Positions 10,316 to 61,589 of a stretch of 64,000 bases of DNA are shown in pieces. Position numbers and translations under genes: made by a program. This DNA is from Candidatus Hadarchaeum sp. (lineage in GTDB: Archaea > Hadarchaeota > Hadarchaeia > Hadarchaeales > Hadarchaeaceae), in assembly GCF_038871235.1 (NCBI RefSeq), contig NZ_JAVZIN010000001.1, positions 1 through 64,000 on the forward strand, written 5' to 3'. Within the stretch, counting starts at the first letter, position 1, and each line of letters opens with the position of its first letter. The notes beneath the pieces were generated by a model that made no database searches, was not told the DNA's origin, and saw nothing but the letters and a program-made list of their open reading frames with translations.

Positions 10316-10450
10316 AGCCCGGTGGGGTAGACCGATTAAGATCGGGCCCAATGGTCAATCCTGCGGGCCTTTGGAGCCTGCGACGGCGGAGGGATATCCC
10401 GCCGAATTCGAAAGTCGACGGGTCGACCGAAGTTCCGCCCCGGGCTACCA
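10316..10450 (+). tRNA. tRNA-Gln(UUG) with three BHB introns (15/16: 10331-10351; 53/54: 10390-10406; 59/60: 10413-10433)
   Basis: Spliced product AGCCCGGTGGGGTAG-TGGTCAATCCTGCGGGCCTTTGGAGCCTGCGACGGCGG-TTCGAA-TCCGCCCCGGGCTACCA is a 76-nt cloverleaf with A1-U72 and encoded CCA. Confidence 0.93.
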
Positions 10451-10529
10451 CAAAATTTTTCAACGTCCCTTGACCGAAAGTCAGGTCCGTCAATCTTTTT
10501 TGCAGCCACGCCACCTTTAACTTGGTAAT

Positions 10530-10958
10530 GTGATGAAGGGAGAACTCCGTTTCATCGGGACTGTGGAGAGGATTGAGAACGAGGAGGCGGAGATCGCCAT
10601 TTTTCCCGAGTTTTGTCCCGGCCTCAGGGGCATCGAAAACTACTCCCACCTGATAATCCTTTATTGGCTTCACCAGCGGGATACCGCCGAACAGAGGCAG
10701 GTTCTGCAGGTTATACCCAAAAGACACCCTGGGGCACCTCTGGTCGGTGTCTTCGCCTCACGGAGCCCCACTAGACCTAACCCCATCGGCATGTGTGTGG
10801 TGGAGCTCATCAGGGTGGAGAACTGCAGGTTATGCGTGAAGGGTTTGGATGCGGTTGAGGGGTCCCCGATCGTCGATATCAAACCTTATCTGCCTCGGGC
10901 TGACTCGGTTCCCGGAGCAAGGGCGCCCGAGTGGATGTCCCACGGACCGACCACCTAG
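10530..10958 (+). CDS. tsaA: tRNA t6A37 N6-methyltransferase TrmO/TsaA family
   Basis: YSHLIILYWLH, GVFASRSPTRPNPIG, GLDAVEGSPIVDIKPY motifs. Confidence 0.93.
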   Translation: MMKGELRFIGTVERIENEEAEIAIFPEFCPGLRGIENYSHLIILYWLHQRDTAEQRQVLQVIPKRHPGAPLVGVFASRSPTRPNPIGMCVVELIRVENCRLCVKGLDAVEGSPIVDIKPYLPRADSVPGARAPEWMSHGPTT

Positions 10959-11677
10959 CGCCCTAATTTTTTAACAATGCGTTTCAGACTCCGCGCAAAA
11001 TGAGTTTTCAGCAGTTCTTCCGGGTGACCCAGAGTTTTTTCCACTTCAGGGTCAAAGGGAAGCCGACCCAAAAAGTTAGCTTTGAAGGTACCGGTTTTCC
11101 CGATTTTTGAGCTAGGGGGGTGCATGTTCTCCACCAAGCCCAGGGTCGGGACCTTGAGTTCTTGAAGAAGTTGAACCAGCCTGGCCACCGTTTTCACCGC
11201 CAATTTCGACGGCGTGGTGACGACGAGGAACTCTCCCCTTTTAATCAGGCGGATGATGTCTAAGACCTCCTCAGCGATTCCCGGGGGCACATCCACCACC
11301 AGATAATCGAGCTGGCCCCATCGGGTAATGGTCAGCAGTTCCACGAAGACGTTCGAGGCCTCCTCGCCCCTCAGTGGCAGCGGCCGGTCCCCGATGTAGT
11401 AAACCAGCGACATGAACTTCACTCCTTGAACCACCGGAGGTATCAACCCCATTTCCTCAGCAGGTACCGCGTCTGTCGCCCCAAGGATGATGTGGCAAGA
11501 GGGGCCGTGGAAATCCAGATCCAGCAGGCCAACCTTCTTGCCGTCTCGGGCCAGCAGCAGGGAGAGAGTAGTAGCGATCAGGCTCTTTCCCACCCCACCT
11601 TTCCCGCTGGCCACGACGATGATCCTCTTGACCCCGCCGAGCCGTTCGTCGATAATGGCGAGGCGCGGGTCCGGCAC
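10955..11677 (-). CDS. Mrp/NBP35 family P-loop ATPase
   Basis: SGKGGVGKS, LLDLDFHGPS, DYLVVDVPPG, GLVENM motifs. GTG start chosen at VPDPR; ORF extends to 11710. Confidence 0.9.
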   Translation of the reverse strand: MPDPRLAIIDERLGGVKRIIVVASGKGGVGKSLIATTLSLLLARDGKKVGLLDLDFHGPSCHIILGATDAVPAEEMGLIPPVVQGVKFMSLVYYIGDRPLPLRGEEASNVFVELLTITRWGQLDYLVVDVPPGIAEEVLDIIRLIKRGEFLVVTTPSKLAVKTVARLVQLLQELKVPTLGLVENMHPPSSKIGKTGTFKANFLGRLPFDPEVEKTLGHPEELLKTHFARSLKRIVKKLGR

Positions 11678-11679
11678 CT

Positions 11680-12081
11680 CTACGTTGAAATCCTGATGTA
11701 GTCTACCCATACTCCCCTTCCTCCGGTTACCTCAAAATCGGGGCTGCGGCAGCGGGGGCAGCGGATGAAAGCATGGGCCAAGTCGGGGACGAAGTGGATG
11801 GCTTCGGACTCATCGGACCCAACCTCGCTGGGGTCCAAGTTCCACTCGTGCCCGCAGGCCCGACATCTGAAGCGTGATTCTTCCATCTCCAACTTGATTT
11901 CGGTTTTCTCCAGCAAGGTGCCCTTGGTCAGCTCCCGGAGGGCATGGTTGAAGATCTCGGTGTCGATGTTTTGCAGTCTTCCCAGCTTTATCTTTGCCTC
12001 GGAAACCATCTTGGCACCCTTCTCCTTGGCCACCGCGAGCATGGTGGAGACGACGGCCTCGGCTAAAGCCCATTCGTGCAG
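11680..12081 (-). CDS. hypA: Hydrogenase nickel incorporation protein HypA (probable CTG start)
   Basis: (M)HEWALA N-terminus, CRAC and CPRC zinc motifs, GGRGV; coupled to mrp. Confidence 0.93.
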   Translation of the reverse strand: MHEWALAEAVVSTMLAVAKEKGAKMVSEAKIKLGRLQNIDTEIFNHALRELTKGTLLEKTEIKLEMEESRFRCRACGHEWNLDPSEVGSDESEAIHFVPDLAHAFIRCPRCRSPDFEVTGGRGVWVDYIRIST

Positions 12082-12252
12082 GCAACCACCGCTTTCACTA
12101 GGTAAAGGACTATTTAGACGGTTTCGGAGCCCCCTCAACTAACTTGGCTCATTTACGCGGAGCTGTTTTTCAGGAACGTTGGCAGGGTTAACTTGTTGGT
12201 TTAAGGGAAGCAATCTCAAGGTATTTTTATCCTTTTGAGGTAGTAATCTTGT

Positions 12253-12385
12253 AGCCCCGTGGGGTAGACCCGCAGGAGGCGGGGCCCATCGGTCAATCCT
12301 GGCGGGCACCGGCAGGCCGCAATCTGGACCCGCTGACCCCGGTTCGAAATCGACAGCGTCGACGAGAATCCGGGCGGGGCTACCA
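12253..12385 (+). tRNA. tRNA-Gln(CUG) with three BHB introns (15/16: 12268-12289; 32/33: 12308-12322; 59/60: 12349-12368)
   Basis: Spliced product AGCCCCGTGGGGTAG-CGGTCAATCCTGGCGGGC-TCTGGACCCGCTGACCCCGGTTCGAA-TCCGGGCGGGGCTACCA is a 76-nt cloverleaf followed by a T-run. Confidence 0.93.
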
Positions 12386-12472
12386 TTTTTTCAATGCGAT
12401 TGAATAGCGAATTCACACCGCGTTAGTGAAATAAGGTTGTAAAAGTGGGGCAAAGCTGTTGAATTCCGAAGC

Positions 12473-12706
12473 TCAGACGTCGATGACGATGGCGGTATTG
12501 GTGTCGACCACTCCTTTGATTTTGTGAATACCTTCGACCACCGCCCTGCTCAGGGTATCCATGCTGCTGGTATCAACGTGAACGATGATGTCGTAGGGCC
12601 CGGTGACAACATGGACATTTTTTACGTCTTGCAGCTTCTTTATCTCCTTGGCCACCTGCTTTACCTTCCCAATGGCCGCGGTTACCAAAATGTATGCCTG
12701 TACCAC
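12473..12706 (-). CDS. Stand-alone Lrp/AsnC ligand-binding (RAM) domain protein
   Basis: AYILV...GK, VTGPYDII, GVVDTNTAI pattern. Confidence 0.9.
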   Translation of the reverse strand: MVQAYILVTAAIGKVKQVAKEIKKLQDVKNVHVVTGPYDIIVHVDTSSMDTLSRAVVEGIHKIKGVVDTNTAIVIDV

Positions 12707-12762
12707 AAGCTCACCTCAACGTTATTTCGCCCCGGGATTTTAAAGAGCTTTCGAGCGTAAAC

Positions 12763-12954
12763 TCAGAGCTCCTTTATCGCCAGCTTCTTGTTTAGGACGA
12801 GTTCTGCGGACCGGACCACGGCGCCGCCCGAGCCTATCGCCCTCGCAGCTTGGCCCTTGGGCACATAGACCAGAAGCTGACCCTCATGCTCCTCAACCTT
12901 TTCCACACGAACTCCCAGCATCGTCTTCAGTTTTTCCACAATGCTTTGATCCAC
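12763..12954 (-). CDS. Small KH-domain protein (NusA-like)
   Basis: ARAIGSGGAVVR GxxG loop; GGAG ribosome-binding site. Confidence 0.75.
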   Translation of the reverse strand: MDQSIVEKLKTMLGVRVEKVEEHEGQLLVYVPKGQAARAIGSGGAVVRSAELVLNKKLAIKEL

Positions 12955-13281
12955 TTGCTCATCTCCACGATATTTTAGTCAACCCTTTATAAATCCTATT
13001 CACCGGTTTAGCTCCAAATGGCTTAAGATTGTTTTGACAAAATTTTCTGTAAATCGGTGTGATCATTAAACTCTCACGTTGATTGTTGCAGTTTAAAAGA
13101 TCCCAACTCTAAGACACCCGTTAAACTGCAGCTTTGTTGCGCGGTCTAACTTCCTGATATCATAGCCAATTAAATACGACACAATGTTTCATTCCGCCTT
13201 GACCTTTGGTGCAGGTTGGTTAATAAGTGAAAAACTAGCGAACTGTTCACACAAATTCAGAGCAATTTACCCTTGGGTTCA

Positions 13282-13980
13282 TCAACCAGCCGAGTATTCT
13301 AGGTTCAGGCTCCACTTGCCGGCCAACAATTGGTTCAGCTCCTTCCAAACGCCAAGCACATGCCCAGCTCCCACCACGCAGACTACCCTCTTTCCCGAGA
13401 GCAGAAATTCCGCCAGCCTCATTGCCATGTAGCGGTCCCTCTCCGAGATCAGGATATCGTAGGCCCTCGGCGAAAGCTTCCTGAACTCCTGCAGCAGATT
13501 TTCGACCACTTGTTCCTCGGTGATTCGACTCAGCTCAAAACCTTTTCCTAATGGAAGCAGGCTGACGATCAGGTTTCCGAAGAGCCTGAGCTTCTCCCGC
13601 GCCGGCATCCCGCTGACGAGCCTGTTGAGCGTAATTCCGATGTCTCTATCGATGAGATGCACTTGCGCCCCGATTTCCCGGGCCTTCTGAACCGCGGCGA
13701 GCATCTCCTCCCCTGCTGCGACCCCTGTTTGGCGGGAGAATTTTCCCTGAAGGAGTAGAATCAGCGCGGTTAGTAGCCAGGCTTCTGGGCCAGCGCGCCA
13801 GAAGTCAAGAATTCCAGCTCTTGTGCCACGCGTTAGCGCCAGATAACGGGCGGGATCCAGCTCCACCGCGACGAGGTCGGGACGCTCAGAGGCGATCACT
13901 CCTTTGGCCTCCTCAACACTTTTCGGCAGCACGTGGGCCACACCGACAATGGTGAGACGATCGCCAATTTTCTTAATCAC
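13282..13980 (-). CDS. TraB/GumN (PrgY) family protein
   Basis: VGVAHV, VAVELD, GEEM, LIDRDI, LISERDRYMA, VVGAGH motifs. Confidence 0.92.
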   Translation of the reverse strand: MIKKIGDRLTIVGVAHVLPKSVEEAKGVIASERPDLVAVELDPARYLALTRGTRAGILDFWRAGPEAWLLTALILLLQGKFSRQTGVAAGEEMLAAVQKAREIGAQVHLIDRDIGITLNRLVSGMPAREKLRLFGNLIVSLLPLGKGFELSRITEEQVVENLLQEFRKLSPRAYDILISERDRYMAMRLAEFLLSGKRVVCVVGAGHVLGVWKELNQLLAGKWSLNLEYSAG

Positions 13981-14632
13981 GCTGGGCACCCGCAGTCCGG
14001 TAGACGAGCAGGACATCGCTGCCCACTCTGGATATCTTGGAGAGCCTGAGCCTGACCCCATTCTTTACTTTGCAGAAACCATCTCCACCGACCAAGGTTT
14101 TGGCCGCCGCCCCGCCGACGATTCTGGGCGCCACGGTGACTTGGATCTCGTCCACAAGCCCCTGCGAGATCATGTTCCAGTTCAGCGTTGAGCCACCCTC
14201 AAGCAGCAGCTTCCTGATTCCCCGCCGGTAGAGTTCTTCGAGGAGCCATTGCAGGTCAATATTCTCCCCGTCAGAAATGATGATTTCAGCCCCAGTTTGG
14301 CGCAGCCTTTCGACCTTTTCCTTATCGGCTGCCCTCGAAACAGCCACGATGGTTCTGGCCGAGTGATCCAGAATTTTGGCGTTGGTGGATATCCTCGCCA
14401 TTCCATCGACCACCACCCGGATGGGGTTTCTTCCCTTCACGCGGCGTACGGTCAGCGAGGGGTTATCGGCCAGAATGGTTCCAGCACCGACCATGACGGC
14501 GTCCATCTTGGCCCTGAGGCGGTGGAGGCGGGTGAGATCGGCCTCGGATGAGATCTTGCTGTCCCCGCACGAGGTCGCTATTTTTCCATCCAGCGTCATC
14601 GCAGCGTTCAGGATCACGTACGGTCGGGGCAT
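13973..14632 (-). CDS. arfC: 2,5-diamino-6-ribosylamino-4(3H)-pyrimidinone 5'-phosphate reductase (Rib7/ArfC)
   Basis: AMTLDGKIA, DAVMVGAGT..DNPSL, LLEGG motifs. Confidence 0.93.
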   Translation of the reverse strand: MPRPYVILNAAMTLDGKIATSCGDSKISSEADLTRLHRLRAKMDAVMVGAGTILADNPSLTVRRVKGRNPIRVVVDGMARISTNAKILDHSARTIVAVSRAADKEKVERLRQTGAEIIISDGENIDLQWLLEELYRRGIRKLLLEGGSTLNWNMISQGLVDEIQVTVAPRIVGGAAAKTLVGGDGFCKVKNGVRLRLSKISRVGSDVLLVYRTAGAQRD

Positions 14633-14845
14633 GGTCTCATCGAGATTTATGTCCGCTGTCTTTTAAAATACGTTTAATTTCGTTTCTGGTGGTCAAAAAT
14701 GATCACGATTTTTTTCTTGGGGTAAATTATTTTCACAAAATTACGGTTGATTGGCACAATTTTCACAAATTTCCTTAAGTAGCTTGATGGTCATCTTTCT
14801 CTCGGAGGTTAATTGGAGGCGCTACAAAGGCAAGGAGGTGAAAAG

Positions 14846-14911
14846 GTGAAGAAGAAGGTCAAAGGTGGCGCGTCCAAAGCCGCCCGCAATCGCCCAGAAG
14901 GGTGGGACTAG
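14846..14911 (+). CDS. Putative 21-aa basic peptide MKKKVKGGASKAARNRPEGWD
   Basis: Perfect GGAGGTGA Shine-Dalgarno just upstream of GTG; upstream TATA-like TTAAGTA; downstream hairpin plus T-run. Confidence 0.45.
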   Translation: MKKKVKGGASKAARNRPEGWD

Positions 14912-15286
14912 TCTTTGCTCTGTGAACAGGCCAAGAGATCAGTTGGGATTTGACGGCAGGTCTCGGCCCCTGCCCTTTTTATCAATTTTGGCAAGTTGAA
15001 AAAATGGGATCAAAAGATACTGTTCAGATGGGGGATTGCTTTTCAAGTTGTCTGGATGACTGCATTGCCTCGACGATCCCGGGATGATTGTGGCGATGTG
15101 GCCGAAAGGCCGAGATATGGTTCAAGAATGAGAAGGAAGCCAGCAAGATAGTGGAGCTGGTGCGCCAAGCCAACGTCTTGAACCAGAAACCGTTGGTCTA
15201 GGACGAGTTGAGGTTCATCGCCCAGCATCCTGAAATTTGTCGCGAAATACTGACTATATCGCCCAAGTAATTACAGTTAGATAGTA

Positions 15287-15364
15287 TGGGGCCAGGGCCG
15301 GGATTTGAACCCAGGTCGCAGGCTCCACAGGCCCGAATGTTAACCAAGCTACACCACCCTGGCC
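15287..15364 (-). tRNA. tRNA-His(GUG), intron-less, encoded G-1 and CCA
   Basis: GGCCAGGGTGGTGTAGCTTGGTTAACATTCGGGCCTGTGGAGCCTGCGACCTGGGTTCAAATCCCGGCCCTGGCCCCA folds as a cloverleaf with C73. Confidence 0.97.
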
Positions 15365-15537
15365 ACAGATGAATTTTGTCCTTTTTTCTTATTTAGGTTT
15401 GAAGTCGTGAGATTTTGTGCCTTTAACTTTATATAGCAACCGATGATTTTCGAGGCCTCCAAAATCGAGTTTTGGGGTAACGAAAGGTATTTTAGCGAGC
15501 CTCGTGAAGCAGAAACGGAAACTTGGAGAGACAGCGC

Positions 15538-17763
15538 ATGAGCGTGAAGTTTTCTGTGGTGGGAAAGCCGGTCCCCAAGCTTGACGCGGTTAAACTTGCC
15601 ACGGGTAAGGCGGAGTTTTTGGACGATATCAGGCTGCCTGGAGCGCTCTCGGTGAAGTTGCTCGGCAGTTCATGTGCCCATGCCCGGATAAGGAGGATTG
15701 ACGTGAGCCGGGCGGAGAGGCTTCCGGGAGTGAAGGGTATCGTCACCTACAAGGATGCACCGAGGGTTCCCTTCAACCCGGGCGTCTACTACATCCTGCC
15801 CAAGGACAAATACATTTTCGACGAGAAAGTGCGCTTTGTCGGGGAGCCGGTGGCGGCCGTGGCGGCGGTGGACGAGGACACCGCCGAGGAGGCAGTCTCG
15901 CTGATCAATGTTGAGTATGAGGAGTTGCCGGCGGTTTTTGACCCAGTCGCAGCCATGGACCCCAAGGCGCCCAAAATCCACGACACCAACATCGCCGCTC
16001 ACATCACTAGGGAGTGGGGAAATGTTGAGAAGGGCTTCCGCGAGGCGGATCGCATTTTTGAAGGCAAGTACACGACCGGAAGGCAGGCGCACGCCCCGAT
16101 TGAGCCCCACGCCTGCGCGGCCTCTTATGAGTTGGGAAAGCTGACCGTCTGGACGACCAGCCAGATTCCCTTTCACGTTCGTTCCATCTTGTCTGAGGTC
16201 TTCGGTTTGCCCCAGCACAGGATCAGGGTAATCACCTCCTTCGTGGGTGGAGGCTTCGGCGGCAAGGACGAGGTCATCCTTGAGCCCATCTGCGCCCTGT
16301 TGGCGATCAAGCTCGGCGCCACCGTCAAGTTGAGGCTGAACCGTGATGAGGTCTTTTACACGACCACAACCAGACACCCCTCGATAATCTGGTTGAAGAC
16401 AGGGGTGAAGAAGGATGGGACCTTGGTGGCGAGGCAGGTAAAGGCGATCCTGAACACGGGTGCCTATGCTTCCCACGGGCCCTCGGTGGCCGGCGCTATG
16501 AGCACGAGGGAGCTGGGTCTTTACAAGTCGCCCCACGTGAGTTTTGAGGCTGATGTAGTCTACACCAACAGCCCCACGGCCGGAGCCTTCCGCGGCTATG
16601 GAAACCCGCAGCAGAGCTTTGCCGTGGAATCGCAATTGGATGAAATCGCCGAGGAACTGGGCATCGACCGCGTGGAGCTGAGGCTGAAGAACACCATCCG
16701 CAGCGGTGATATAAACCCCGGGACCGGTTTGAGGATTGAGAGCTGCGGGCTGGAGGAGTGCATAAGGAGGGCCACGGAAAGGATAGGCTGGCGGCAGAAG
16801 TCCCGAGACATCGAGAGTGGCAGGTTGAAGAACCGCGGTCTGGGCATCGCCTGCCTGATGCACAACAGCGGTGCCTTCCCCTACATCAAGGAATCATCTT
16901 CAGCGATCGTTCAGATCAACGAGGATGGCTCGGTGCAGGTGATGACGGGGGCGACCGACATCGGGCAGGGGATCACGACCACCATCGCCCAGATGGTGGC
17001 GGAGGAGCTCGGCGTGAATTTGGAGAGCATAGCGGTTTCCCGTCCCGACACCGAGTTTGTTCCGGTGGACCGGGGAACCTACGCCAGCGGAGAGCTCTAC
17101 ATCAGCGGTCAGGCGGCGAGGCTGGCCGCCGCGGATGCCAAGCAGCAGCTACTAAAGAAGGCAGCCGAGGTGATGGAGGCCAAGCCCGATGATTTAGAGA
17201 TCGTTGGCGGTGTAGTTCGGTTGAAGAAGAATCCGCAGGTGGGAAAGACCATTCGAGAGATAGTCGGTGAGGTGGCGATAGTCGGCAGGGCCTCATACAT
17301 GCCGCCGAGCAACGCCCCGCTGTTTGGCGCCATGTGCGTGGAGCTGGAGGTAGACCCAGAACTCGGCAGCATCAGAGTGCTGAATATTACTTATGCAGCC
17401 GACGTCGGTCGGGCGATCAACCCCTTAATAGTTGAGGGACAGATCGAGGGCGGGGCAGTGATGGGGTTGGGCTTCACTCTCACCGAGGAGTTGGTTCTGG
17501 ACAGCAATGGTCGGGTGATCAACAAGAACTTCACCGACTACAAGCTTCTCCATGCGTCAGATTTGCCGCGGATAGAGCCCATCATCGTTGAATCCCATGA
17601 GCCAACGGGACCATTCGCCGCTAAGGGGGTTGGTGAGCCTGCCTTGGTTCCAGTGGCTCCAGCCATAGCCAACGCTATATACCAGGCGGTCGGCGTCAGG
17701 ATAAGAGATCTGCCGATAACTCATAATAAAATACTGAGGGCCCTAAAAGACCGTTTAAAGTGA
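15538..17763 (+). CDS. Xanthine dehydrogenase/aldehyde oxidoreductase family molybdopterin-binding subunit
   Basis: GGGFGGK, AFRGYG, GQGITT, EGQIEGG, KGVGE motifs. Confidence 0.93.
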   Translation: MSVKFSVVGKPVPKLDAVKLATGKAEFLDDIRLPGALSVKLLGSSCAHARIRRIDVSRAERLPGVKGIVTYKDAPRVPFNPGVYYILPKDKYIFDEKVRFVGEPVAAVAAVDEDTAEEAVSLINVEYEELPAVFDPVAAMDPKAPKIHDTNIAAHITREWGNVEKGFREADRIFEGKYTTGRQAHAPIEPHACAASYELGKLTVWTTSQIPFHVRSILSEVFGLPQHRIRVITSFVGGGFGGKDEVILEPICALLAIKLGATVKLRLNRDEVFYTTTTRHPSIIWLKTGVKKDGTLVARQVKAILNTGAYASHGPSVAGAMSTRELGLYKSPHVSFEADVVYTNSPTAGAFRGYGNPQQSFAVESQLDEIAEELGIDRVELRLKNTIRSGDINPGTGLRIESCGLEECIRRATERIGWRQKSRDIESGRLKNRGLGIACLMHNSGAFPYIKESSSAIVQINEDGSVQVMTGATDIGQGITTTIAQMVAEELGVNLESIAVSRPDTEFVPVDRGTYASGELYISGQAARLAAADAKQQLLKKAAEVMEAKPDDLEIVGGVVRLKKNPQVGKTIREIVGEVAIVGRASYMPPSNAPLFGAMCVELEVDPELGSIRVLNITYAADVGRAINPLIVEGQIEGGAVMGLGFTLTEELVLDSNGRVINKNFTDYKLLHASDLPRIEPIIVESHEPTGPFAAKGVGEPALVPVAPAIANAIYQAVGVRIRDLPITHNKILRALKDRLK

Positions 17764-18022
17764 CGAATGCGTCGTTGTTGGACTTGTATCGCTCAGTCCA
17801 TATATACTGTCGCTTAAACTACTTAGATCTAAGTTATCAGAAGTAGAATAATTAACATCACCAAAAATAGCTAACGAGATACTATACAAAGTTGAGCATG
17901 ATAAATTGCGTCAAAAATTATTCGGCTAAAACCTGCTTTTTTCTTAGAATAATTCAGATAAAATTCTCGTTAATCTAGCACCAGCGAAAGAAATATGGAT
18001 GGCTTATTTGGCCGCTGAGGGA

Positions 18023-18194
18023 TGGTGCGGGGGGAGGGATTTGAACCCTCAACATTCGGATATCAGACCCAGGAGTCTTCAGTTTTGCCCCTCGAGGGCT
18101 GTCCCCAAGGTCCGACACTATTGAGCCAGGTTTTACCTGGTCTCCCATTTCAATCCGGTGGCCTTTATCCACCAGATGGTTGAGTTACCCCCGC
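18023..18194 (-). tRNA. tRNA-Phe(GAA) with four BHB introns (17/17a: 18177-18148; 22/23: 18141-18120; 30/31: 18111-18084; 37/38: 18076-18062)
   Basis: Spliced product GCGGGGGTAACTCAACC-TGGGAG-AGTGTCGG-ACTGAAG-ATCCGAATGTTGAGGGTTCAAATCCCTCCCCCCGCACCA is a 77-nt fully paired cloverleaf. Confidence 0.92.
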
Positions 18195-18348: not shown

Positions 18349-19695
18349 ATGGTGATGTTTAGTTATAGGGGCGAGGTTGAGAAAATTTTGCGAAGGGCAG
18401 CAGTAAAAGTTGGTGACAAAATTAAGGTCGTAAGCCGCCGCCGAGCCTATATCGGTGTTTTGATGCCCCGCACCGAGCTGGGTGATCCTAATCATCTGGT
18501 TCTCAAGTTGGCCAACGGTTACAACATCGGCGTGAAGGTCGATAGAGACACTGAGGTTACCTTGCTGGAAAGTCAAGAGCTACCAGAACTAGCCGTGCCC
18601 AAGCCAGAGAGGCCCCAGGATCCATCTAAGCCACGGGTGACGATAGTGGGCACCGGGGGGACGATTGCCAGCAGGGTCGATTACCGCACCGGAGCGGTCT
18701 ATCCTGCGTTTACTCCTGAGGACATTTACGGCGCGGTCCCAGAGATAGCCGAGATTGCCAACATCAAGGTCGTTCAGGCCTGCAACGTGTTCAGCGAGCA
18801 CATGACCCCAGACCTCTGGGTGAAGATAGCCCGGGTTGTAGCCAAGGAAATCAACGGCGGGGCTACGGGCGTCGTCGTGGCCCACGGCACCGACACGATG
18901 AGTTATACCGCCGCCGCACTGAGCTTCATGCTCAAAGGATTATTCCGCCCGGTAGTTTTAGTGGGATCGCAAAGGTCCTCTGACCGGCCGAGCAGCGATG
19001 CCGCCTTGAACCTGATTTCAGCAGTCGCAGTCGCCGCCCGGTCGGATATCGCCGAAGTTGTTGTTGTCATGCACGGGTCAACCGAGGACGACTTCTGCTT
19101 AATCCATAGGGGGACGAAGGTAAGGAAGTGCCACACCAGCCGCAGGGACGCTTTTCAGAGCATCAACGACATCCCTCTGGGTATGGTACGAAACGGACAG
19201 ATCAAGCTGTTCCGCGATGACTATCACCGCGCCAGCTCCGAGGGCAGGGTCAGAGTGCAGGGCCGGTTTGAGAAAAAAGTCGCCCTGTTGAAGGCCACAC
19301 CGGGTTTGCCCTCCAGCGTTATCAAAGGTATCGTGGCTTCGGGTGATAAAGGTATCGTGATTGAGGGGACCGGGCTGGGCCATGCTCCCCAATCTCTTTT
19401 CGAGGGAATCGAATTCGCCGGAAAGAGAAAAGTACCTGTGGTGATGACATCGCAGTGCCTCTGGGGGAGGGTTAATATGAACGTCTATTCAACGGGCCGC
19501 GACCTGCTCCAGCTCGGCGTGATCCCTGCCGAGGACATGCTCCCTGAGGTGGCTTGGGTGAAGCTGATGTGGGTTCTGGGCAGGACCAAGGATCCAGATA
19601 AAGTGGCCAAGTTAATGCAGCGAAATCTGACTGGAGAGATAACCCCTAGAACCCGACCCGATGTTTTTCTAAAAACCATCTTCACCTCTGAGTAA
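18349..19695 (+). CDS. gatD: Glutamyl-tRNA(Gln) amidotransferase subunit D
   Basis: LKLANGYNIG, TGGTIASRVDYRTGAV, HGTDTM, GSQRSSDRPSSD, KCHTSRRDAF motifs. Confidence 0.98.
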   Translation: MVMFSYRGEVEKILRRAAVKVGDKIKVVSRRRAYIGVLMPRTELGDPNHLVLKLANGYNIGVKVDRDTEVTLLESQELPELAVPKPERPQDPSKPRVTIVGTGGTIASRVDYRTGAVYPAFTPEDIYGAVPEIAEIANIKVVQACNVFSEHMTPDLWVKIARVVAKEINGGATGVVVAHGTDTMSYTAAALSFMLKGLFRPVVLVGSQRSSDRPSSDAALNLISAVAVAARSDIAEVVVVMHGSTEDDFCLIHRGTKVRKCHTSRRDAFQSINDIPLGMVRNGQIKLFRDDYHRASSEGRVRVQGRFEKKVALLKATPGLPSSVIKGIVASGDKGIVIEGTGLGHAPQSLFEGIEFAGKRKVPVVMTSQCLWGRVNMNVYSTGRDLLQLGVIPAEDMLPEVAWVKLMWVLGRTKDPDKVAKLMQRNLTGEITPRTRPDVFLKTIFTSE

Positions 19696-61514: not shown

Positions 61515-61589
61515 GGGCCCGTGGTCCAGTGGTCAAGACACTACCCTCACACGGTAGATACCGGGGTTCGAATCCCCGCGGGCCCACCA
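61515..61589 (+). tRNA. tRNA-Val(CAC), intron-less
   Basis: GGGCCCGTGGTCCAGTGGTCAAGACACTACCCTCACACGGTAGATACCGGGGTTCGAATCCCCGCGGGCCCACCA cloverleaf. Confidence 0.98.

Follow-up and report, generated by a model that had tools for sequence, protein, structure and literature searches.

Several short introns in each of three tRNA genes of a Hadarchaeum genome that encodes a single alpha-type splicing endonuclease

The stretch of DNA analysed here (the window) is 64,000 nt long, C1:1-64000 of a Hadarchaeum genome (G000), and carries five tRNA genes, of which tRNA-Gln(UUG), tRNA-Gln(CUG) and tRNA-Phe(GAA) are interrupted by several short introns bounded by bulge-helix-bulge (BHB) motifs. The genome amounts to 1,205,095 bases in 16 contigs, with a completeness of 94.75% and a contamination of 0.88%. 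NCBI taxonomy and the matches of its tRNA-splicing endonuclease, EndA, place it in Hadarchaeum, phylum Hadarchaeota (formerly Hadesarchaea), kingdom Methanobacteriati; the taxonomy check thus upheld the view of an initial annotation of this DNA that the genome is not obviously one of the Thermoproteales.

Interrupted tRNA genes of the window

The tRNA genes and introns of the window are listed below, with introns named by the tRNA positions that they separate and with the pairing in the central, inner and outer helix of each BHB motif.

10316-10447 (+), encoded CCA to 10450: tRNA-Gln(UUG) gene with three introns; found by two scripts, clean cloverleaf after splicing
10331-10351 (+): Gln(UUG) intron 1, 21 nt, D-loop 15/16, relaxed HBh'; central 4/4, inner 5 bp, outer 0
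10390-10406 (+): Gln(UUG) intron 2, 17 nt, 53/54, full hBHBh'; central 4/4, inner 3 bp, outer 3 bp
10413-10433 (+): Gln(UUG) intron 3, 21 nt, T-loop 59/60; central 4/4, inner 5 bp, outer 0, rising to 5 bp without intron 2
12253-12382 (+), encoded CCA to 12385: tRNA-Gln(CUG) gene with three introns; found by two scripts
12268-12289 (+): Gln(CUG) intron 1, 22 nt, D-loop 15/16, relaxed HBh'; central 4/4, inner 5 bp, outer 0
12308-12322 (+): Gln(CUG) intron 2, 15 nt, anticodon loop 32/33, relaxed; central 4/4, inner 2 bp, outer 1 bp
12349-12368 (+): Gln(CUG) intron 3, 20 nt, T-loop 59/60, full hBHBh'; central 4/4, inner 5 bp, outer 5 bp
18194-18026 (-), encoded CCA 18025-18023: tRNA-Phe(GAA) gene with four introns; found by two scripts, no stem mismatches once spliced
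18148-18177 (-): Phe intron 1, 30 nt, D-loop 17/17a, relaxed; central 4/4, inner 8 bp, outer 1 bp
18120-18141 (-): Phe intron 2, 22 nt, D-stem 22/23, relaxed; central 4/4, inner 6 bp, outer 0-1 bp
18084-18111 (-): Phe intron 3, 28 nt, anticodon stem 30/31; central 4/4, inner 8 bp, outer 2-3 bp
18062-18076 (-): Phe intron 4, 15 nt, canonical 37/38; central 3/4, inner 2 bp, outer 1 bp, rising to 5 bp without intron 3
15287-15363 (-): tRNA-His(GUG), no intron; ARAGORN and Rfam
61515-61589 (+): tRNA-Val(CAC), no intron; ARAGORN and Rfam

All possible BHB segments of 11-60 nt were enumerated and the cloverleaf was scored after removal of up to four of them. The geometry applied required four exon nucleotides that stop 2 nt short of the 5' cut to pair with four intron nucleotides that stop 2 nt short of the 3' cut; a looser BHB search gave spurious tiny D-arm introns and gave way to stricter rules. 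A second, independent script, written as an arm-by-arm dynamic programme, returned the identical parse for all three genes. When the acceptor ends were held fixed and the interior was shuffled, none of the 150 shuffles per gene matched the real score (72, 74 and 76 for the real genes against shuffle maxima of 48, 48 and 52). Both scripts agreed with the initial annotation on ten introns of 15-30 nt in three of the five window tRNA genes (three, three and four), nine of them at non-canonical sites and with tRNA-His and tRNA-Val intron-less; the sole canonical site was Phe 37/38. Four of the intron boundaries can be slid by 1-3 nt with no change in the product. Under BHB-guided boundaries all ten introns begin with A, as had been annotated, but this is no rule, since A is the first base of only 25 of the 44 introns found genome-wide and the corresponding introns of relatives begin with A, T or G.

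The three loci span 130-169 nt; all have an encoded CCA and a discriminator base, and their 7-bp acceptor stems are perfectly paired. After splicing, each product carried 11 of the 11 scored conserved positions, with no stem mismatch in Phe and one (U13-U22) in each Gln. The genes might instead be decaying or non-functional copies, with working Gln and Phe tRNAs encoded elsewhere, and such a reading gains from the failure of standard tRNA finders to recognize them: in the window ARAGORN and Rfam called only His and Val, and in a genome-wide Rfam tRNA search both Gln genes were unmatched while Phe gave only an 18-nt T-arm match (14.1 bits, E-value 3.4). The encoded CCA ends and the T-runs downstream of both Gln genes speak for working genes, as do exons that are conserved over 20 genomes and match those of an intron-less orthologue (described below). 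ARAGORN with intron search, the Rfam tRNA model and the acceptor-anchored scan found no further Gln or Phe gene in the 1.2-Mb genome. Decay can accordingly be given next to no probability. The initial annotation had itself considered that these might be non-functional copies beside a complete, intron-less tRNA set; instead, no other Gln or Phe gene was found, and 26 of the 41 parsed tRNA genes of the genome bear introns.

In each intron, the exon just upstream of the 5' cut pairs with the 3' end of the intron, two 3-nt bulges flank this central helix, and the intron hairpin closes inside. Cuts at the predicted positions regenerate the mature tRNA sequence. The 4-bp central helix is complete in nine of the ten introns and has three of its four pairs in Phe 37/38, and the inner helix varies from 2 to 8 bp. 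Five of the ten, namely 53/54 and 59/60 of Gln(UUG), 59/60 of Gln(CUG), and 30/31 and 37/38 of Phe, form an outer helix of 2-5 bp once the remaining introns are taken out, and it is these five that have a strict BHB, defined as outer and inner helices of at least 2 bp each. In both Gln 15/16 introns, the 3' end of the intron mimics the 3' strand of the D-stem and pairs with nucleotides 10-13.

Two of the outer helices depend on a neighbouring intron. The outer helix of the Gln(UUG) 59/60 intron is the T-stem, which becomes contiguous only after removal of the 53/54 intron (0 to 5 bp), and that of Phe 37/38 grows from 1 to 5 bp upon removal of the 30/31 intron. Completion of these helices by removal of a neighbour suggests, from base pairing, a preferred order of splicing in both tRNAs, with Gln(UUG) 59/60 being processed after 53/54, and Phe 37/38 after 30/31.

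The tRNA gene set of the genome and of its relatives

The initial annotation had proposed an intron-aware search of the whole genome for missing tRNAs. A census combining Rfam hits with an acceptor-stem-anchored scan gave 41 parsed tRNA genes and 44 introns, distributed over 26 of the genes (63%). Fifteen genes have no intron, 13 have one, nine have two, three have three (Tyr and both Gln) and one, Phe, has four. Eighteen of the introns lie at, or can be slid to, 37/38, and the other 26 lie at 8/9, in the D-arm, at 29-33, 42-44, 53/54, 59/60 and 68/69. The scan started from 648 acceptor pairs, of which 282 passed a T-arm filter and 180 were parsed. The scores of the parsed candidates were separated by a gap, with 35 at 65 or above, all tRNAs, and the rest at 59 or below; among the 102 longest candidate spans, which were partly processed, none scored 58 or more. 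The scan is blind to genes with an acceptor-stem intron or without U8, and Asp and Asn were located by hand. The parses of Val-GAC, of the second intron of Lys-CUU and of Leu-CAA rest on weak BHBs and are less secure. With the longest spans partly processed and the genome 94.75% complete, the scan met no gene for Trp-CCA, Thr-GGU, Arg-CCU, Leu-UAA or a third CAU tRNA.

Three further genes on contig C1, outside the window, extend the range of intron positions. tRNA-Asp(GUC) (C1:~83288-83383, -) has a 21-nt intron in the 3' strand of the acceptor stem (68/69), with a central helix of 4/4, an inner helix of 5 bp and an outer helix of 2 bp, and the finders report it with a mismatched acceptor stem. 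tRNA-Tyr(GUA) (C1:83700-83833, -) is interrupted at 37/38, 43/44 and 59/60, and in tRNA-Asn(GUU) (C1:~117230-117378, -) introns of 16 and 60 nt lie at 8/9 and 37/38, respectively; the ARAGORN calls for both were incorrect. ARAGORN with intron search also misnamed five interrupted genes. Its two other 'Phe' calls (C9:63237-63341 and C10:2631-2736) were rejected as Phe genes, being parsed as Arg-UCU and Arg-UCG with two introns each, and at C4:54770-54888, C10:43377-43468 and C2:136948-137065 two 'Leu-UAA' genes are Pro-CGG and Pro-UGG and one 'Thr-GGU' is Leu-CAA. Standard finders thus missed three of the five tRNA genes of the window and, elsewhere in the genome, called two Arg genes Phe, two Pro genes Leu and one Leu gene Thr, so that tRNA-based inferences of completeness and codon usage for Hadarchaeota will be wrong unless intron-aware methods are used.

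In an all-against-all comparison of 41 of the 44 introns (excluding three Asn + Asp introns), similarity was confined to isoacceptor pairs: Arg-UCU with Arg-UCG, Gly-CCC with Gly-UCC and, weakly, the third introns of the two Gln genes. There is thus no sign of wide intron transposition of the kind seen in Thermoproteales, and inheritance through gene duplication accounts for the pattern more readily than a spread by transposition among unrelated tRNAs would.

The 3' end of tRNA-Arg(UCU) (C9:63309-63348) recurs as an exact 40-nt copy on another contig (C13:23689-23728, -), with no 5' half adjacent. The copy takes in the variable region, the T-arm, the acceptor stem's 3' strand and a flank of 7 nt, and it resembles the duplicate that is left by integration into a tRNA gene.

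Such a duplicate bears on the idea, published and cited in PMC3488258, that introns are selected for masking tRNA attachment sites from integrating viruses or plasmids. The spread of the introns over the D-arm, the anticodon arm, the T-loop and the 3' strand of the Asp acceptor stem would suit this role, as would a copy resembling the trace of an integration. The copied segment is, however, the intron-free 3' part of the gene and is thus uninformative on protection, and relatives manage with zero, two or four tRNA-Phe introns, a pattern that neutral gain and loss would fit equally well. Masking is rather unlikely to be what maintains the introns.

tRNA-Phe was compared in 20 genomes of the order Hadarchaeales, our own included. 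All four introns are present in eight genomes (our own, four of the same genus at 96-99% identity and three of other genera), only 30/31 and 37/38 in ten, only the two D-arm introns in one, and none in one (G024, locus L017). The five exon-equivalent stretches of the intron-less gene are identical to the exons of our genome. Across the relatives the Phe exons are nearly constant, while the intron hairpins vary in sequence with their pairing retained, Phe intron 1 among them. Where present, the Phe D-loop and 30/31 introns (loci L003-L022) end in TGAAA and CAAA, respectively, in every genus compared, with the remainder variable.

For tRNA-Gln, 38 gene copies of 73-156 nt were compared from 25 genomes. 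The 15/16 insert follows directly after the D-loop GTAG in 35 of the 38 copies, partly as judged by eye, and the other three are intron-less. The 32/33, 53/54 and 59/60 introns are limited to some genera of one family (f1), and some lineages (g8 and three others) have an extra D-arm intron that our genome lacks. By eye, this extra intron, of ~20 nt and late in the D-loop or D-stem, is present in the Gln(UUG) genes of G021, G014, G037, G013 and G028 (L028, L029, L036, L041 and L046), and it raises those of G021 and G014 to four introns and 155-156 nt.

These comparisons of tRNA-Phe and tRNA-Gln bear out the claim of the initial annotation that the introns are real and lineage-wide. Chimeric joins made during assembly or binning might have been suspected in a genome of 16 contigs whose nearest named relatives are metagenome-assembled genomes (MAGs). 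The same interrupted genes recur, however, in four other genomes of the genus (Gln(UUG) at 93-100% identity), with diverged versions in other genera, and an artefact of this kind is hardly conceivable. The multi-intron tRNA trait is one of the whole order, with single introns gained or lost between genera. Hadarchaeales thus offer a natural series, the same tRNA with zero, two or four introns on conserved exons, and the presence and absence of introns across genera could be used to date their gain and loss.

The splicing endonuclease and its substrates

A single EndA open reading frame (ORF) was found, on contig C10 (L001:1474-2013, -). It encodes 179 aa with the families PF02778 and PF01974, each of which matches once in the genome. 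The closest relatives of the protein, at 89-91% identity, are records named 'Hadesarchaea archaeon', 'Candidatus Hadarchaeum sp.' and 'Candidatus Hadarchaeum yellowstonense', the last at 89%; an MSBL1 record, from a sister lineage, has an EndA of 62% identity. It has the hallmarks of alpha4-type enzymes, a single gene of ~180 aa with an N-terminal domain, a catalytic C-terminal domain and a Tyr-His-Lys triad, and none of the 121 aligned homologues departs from the catalytic residues Tyr115, His125 and Lys156. The alignment to the M. jannaschii alpha4 enzyme (1a79) is nearly gapless. Judged by gene content, the protein presumably assembles as a homotetramer. The three-unit epsilon2 form of EndA (~390 aa) was not matched, the ORF being 179 aa and the homologue search having covered proteins of 98-314 aa only.

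A heteromeric enzyme, in which a diverged or unassembled beta-like subunit would confer (alpha-beta)2-like relaxed specificity, must also be weighed. At 94.75% completeness a subunit gene could lie in the missing part of the genome, and the best match of EndA among solved structures is the heterotetramer-type enzyme of M. kandleri (5x89, E-value 1e-49). A second EndA-like subunit was, however, absent from the 9,964 six-frame ORFs of at least 50 aa in this assembly, searched with phmmer and with a profile of 121 sequences, the next best E-value being 2.4 or more, and Kaneta et al. (PMC5829648) also assign alpha4 to Hadesarchaea. We regard a heteromer as quite improbable.

Cleavage by EndA within BHB bulges and ligation of the exons by RtcB are established chemistry of the two families, and an RtcB gene is present in the genome. 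The observations are very probably explained as follows: the three interrupted loci are the functional and sole Gln(UUG), Gln(CUG) and Phe genes of a Hadarchaeum, each broken by several short BHB introns that are cut by a single alpha-type EndA, as an order-wide trait. The 179-aa enzyme would cut in both bulges of each motif, accepting relaxed HBh' sites that have no outer helix, and RtcB would then ligate the exons. Because no other Gln or Phe genes were found, the single EndA must handle relaxed, non-canonical sites. The broad-specificity endonuclease anticipated by the initial annotation is therefore borne out as to its substrates, but the enzyme is neither of the (alpha-beta)2 nor of the epsilon2 type that had been associated with them, being the product of a single alpha-type gene.

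Several points weigh against this explanation. The outer helix is reduced to 0-1 bp (relaxed HBh') in five of the ten window introns (15/16 of both Gln genes, 32/33 of Gln(CUG), and 17/17a and 22/23 of Phe), in line with the weak outer helices noted in the initial annotation, so that EndA must accept relaxed motifs, whereas alpha4 enzymes were earlier taken to cut strict BHB motifs only (PMC5829648). The loop between the catalytic Tyr and His is as long as that of the M. jannaschii alpha4 enzyme, and there is no insert of the size of the crenarchaea-specific loop (CSL) or of the ARMAN-2 loop termed ASL; with loops no longer than those of M. jannaschii, relaxed specificity is not explained by them. 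Cleavage of these sites by the 179-aa protein is a prediction from sequence. The parser presumes BHB introns, and the BHB statistics consequently depend on the parse; evidence independent of it comes from the intron-less orthologue. The only metatranscriptome with any of this stretch (5% of sampled words) yielded eight contig pieces without joints, none of them over the Gln or Phe genes, and is therefore uninformative on splicing. Finally, at 94.75% completeness the absence of a further Gln or Phe gene is not certain.

The enzyme was examined for features that might account for its range. Relative to the A. pernix alpha subunit (3p1z_B) it has gaps of 5 and 4 residues where the CSL, an insert with a conserved Lys, lies, and the five extra residues that ARMAN-2 has between its catalytic Tyr and His are absent. 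Neither of the two loops varies in length among the 121 homologues. In an alignment with 17 named EndAs of other lineages, the Tyr-His loop had the same length and the same R-G-x-x-P-G pattern as in MAG enzymes of Woese-, Pace-, Parv- and Nanoarchaeota, and it was 1-2 residues longer than in records from Thermoplasmata, Hydrothermarchaeota and Methanoperedenaceae. Candidate determinants of relaxed specificity are this Tyr-His loop, R-G-x-K-P-G, common to DPANN, and an invariant G-K-P-L-x-G-G loop in the N-domain. Lys36, which lies in an N-domain loop as long as ARMAN-2's ASL region and is kept in 119 of 121 homologues, was considered for the role of specificity lysine (K44/K161); the case is weakened by the presence of Lys at this position in records from Thermoplasmata, Hydrothermarchaeota and Nanohaloarchaea, and the residue stands as a candidate only. 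We tentatively propose, as a possibility about which considerable doubt is in order, that a plain 179-aa alpha4-type EndA with no insert of CSL or ASL size regularly cleaves HBh' sites poor in helix at over ten different tRNA positions, that its relaxed specificity comes from something other than the known inserted loops, and that some introns become recognizable only after a neighbour has been spliced.

Known systems and neighbouring genes

Kaneta et al. 2018 (PMC5829648) predicted tRNA genes for Hadesarchaea archaeon YNP_N21, reported marked tRNA gene disruption in Hadesarchaea, including multiple-intron genes, and scored the Hadesarchaea EndA as alpha4 with an 'L3' type loop. The independent intron proliferation that the initial annotation had inferred was thus right in substance but not new: the multi-intron tRNA system of this lineage is already known, from the same genus, which is a case that the initial annotation had itself named as refuting its claim. 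YNP_N21 shares with our genome its lineage, a single alpha-type EndA and multi-intron tRNA genes; it is another species-level genome, and the present analysis adds per-gene maps, the order-wide pattern and the dependence on splicing order. In the accessible literature on tRNA introns and splicing endonucleases of Hadesarchaea or Hadarchaeota, we found no per-gene intron maps, no series of tRNA-Phe genes with zero, two and four introns across Hadarchaeales, no neighbour-dependent BHBs and no mention that EndA lacks an insert of CSL or ASL size. What is novel thus seems to be the detail, namely the intron maps, the presence and absence series, the neighbour-dependent BHBs and the insert-less enzyme.

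L3 is described as a loop of the C-terminal domain, placed between the Tyr and His of the catalytic triad, with N. equitans and ARMAN-2 as examples (PMC5829648). Our EndA agrees with the L3-like motif shared with DPANN in its R-G-x-x-P-G sequence, yet it has no insertion relative to M. jannaschii and is 5 residues shorter there than ARMAN-2. The ASL itself comprises residues 158-168 with K161, and the second loop of ARMAN-2 and N. equitans residues 240-247 (PMC3488258, PMC3239211). The DPANN enzymes (epsilon2 with ASL in ARMAN-2, alpha4 with L3) resemble the present case in acting on relaxed introns outside the anticodon loop and, for the MAG enzymes, in the length and pattern of the Tyr-His loop; unlike that of ARMAN-2, the Hadarchaeum EndA is not a three-unit protein and is without the 5-residue Tyr-His insert.

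Intron-bearing tRNAs make up ~15% in archaea in general, 70% in Thermoproteales and 92-95% in some Asgard genomes (PMC11291895). The Thermoproteales are like Hadarchaeum in having many tRNA genes with several BHB or relaxed introns at non-canonical sites, and the proportions are similar (~70% against 63% here). They differ in having an (alpha-beta)2 EndA with the CSL, whereas Hadarchaeum has one gene, no beta subunit, no CSL and no sign of wide transposition of introns. M. kandleri also stands outside TACK and DPANN, and its tRNA-Glu(UUC) has a relaxed D-loop 20b/21 HBh' intron together with a canonical one; its enzyme, however, is a loop-less (alpha-beta)2 form of constrained specificity with very few such introns (PMC5829648), against 26 non-canonical introns in Hadarchaeum. 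A lineage outside TACK, Asgard and DPANN thus combines tRNA disruption like that of Thermoproteales with the simplest EndA architecture, here confirmed gene by gene. This weakens the textbook tie between EndA subunit type and substrate range, a point that was already made by Kaneta et al. 2018 (PMC5829648).

The genes next to the interrupted loci include two with tRNA-related Pfam domains. A gene with a TrmO-type tRNA methyltransferase domain (10530-10958, +) lies 3' of tRNA-Gln(UUG), and GatD, a subunit of the archaeal Glu-tRNA(Gln) amidotransferase (18349-19695, +), stands head to head with tRNA-Phe. The first acceptor pair of both Gln genes is A1-U72. Under the identity rule for this tRNA, the pair together with GatD is consistent with Gln-tRNA being made by transamidation. 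The remaining neighbours are housekeeping genes, for a ParA/NUBPL-type NTPase, HypA, an AsnC-type domain, RibD_C and a molybdopterin oxidoreductase.

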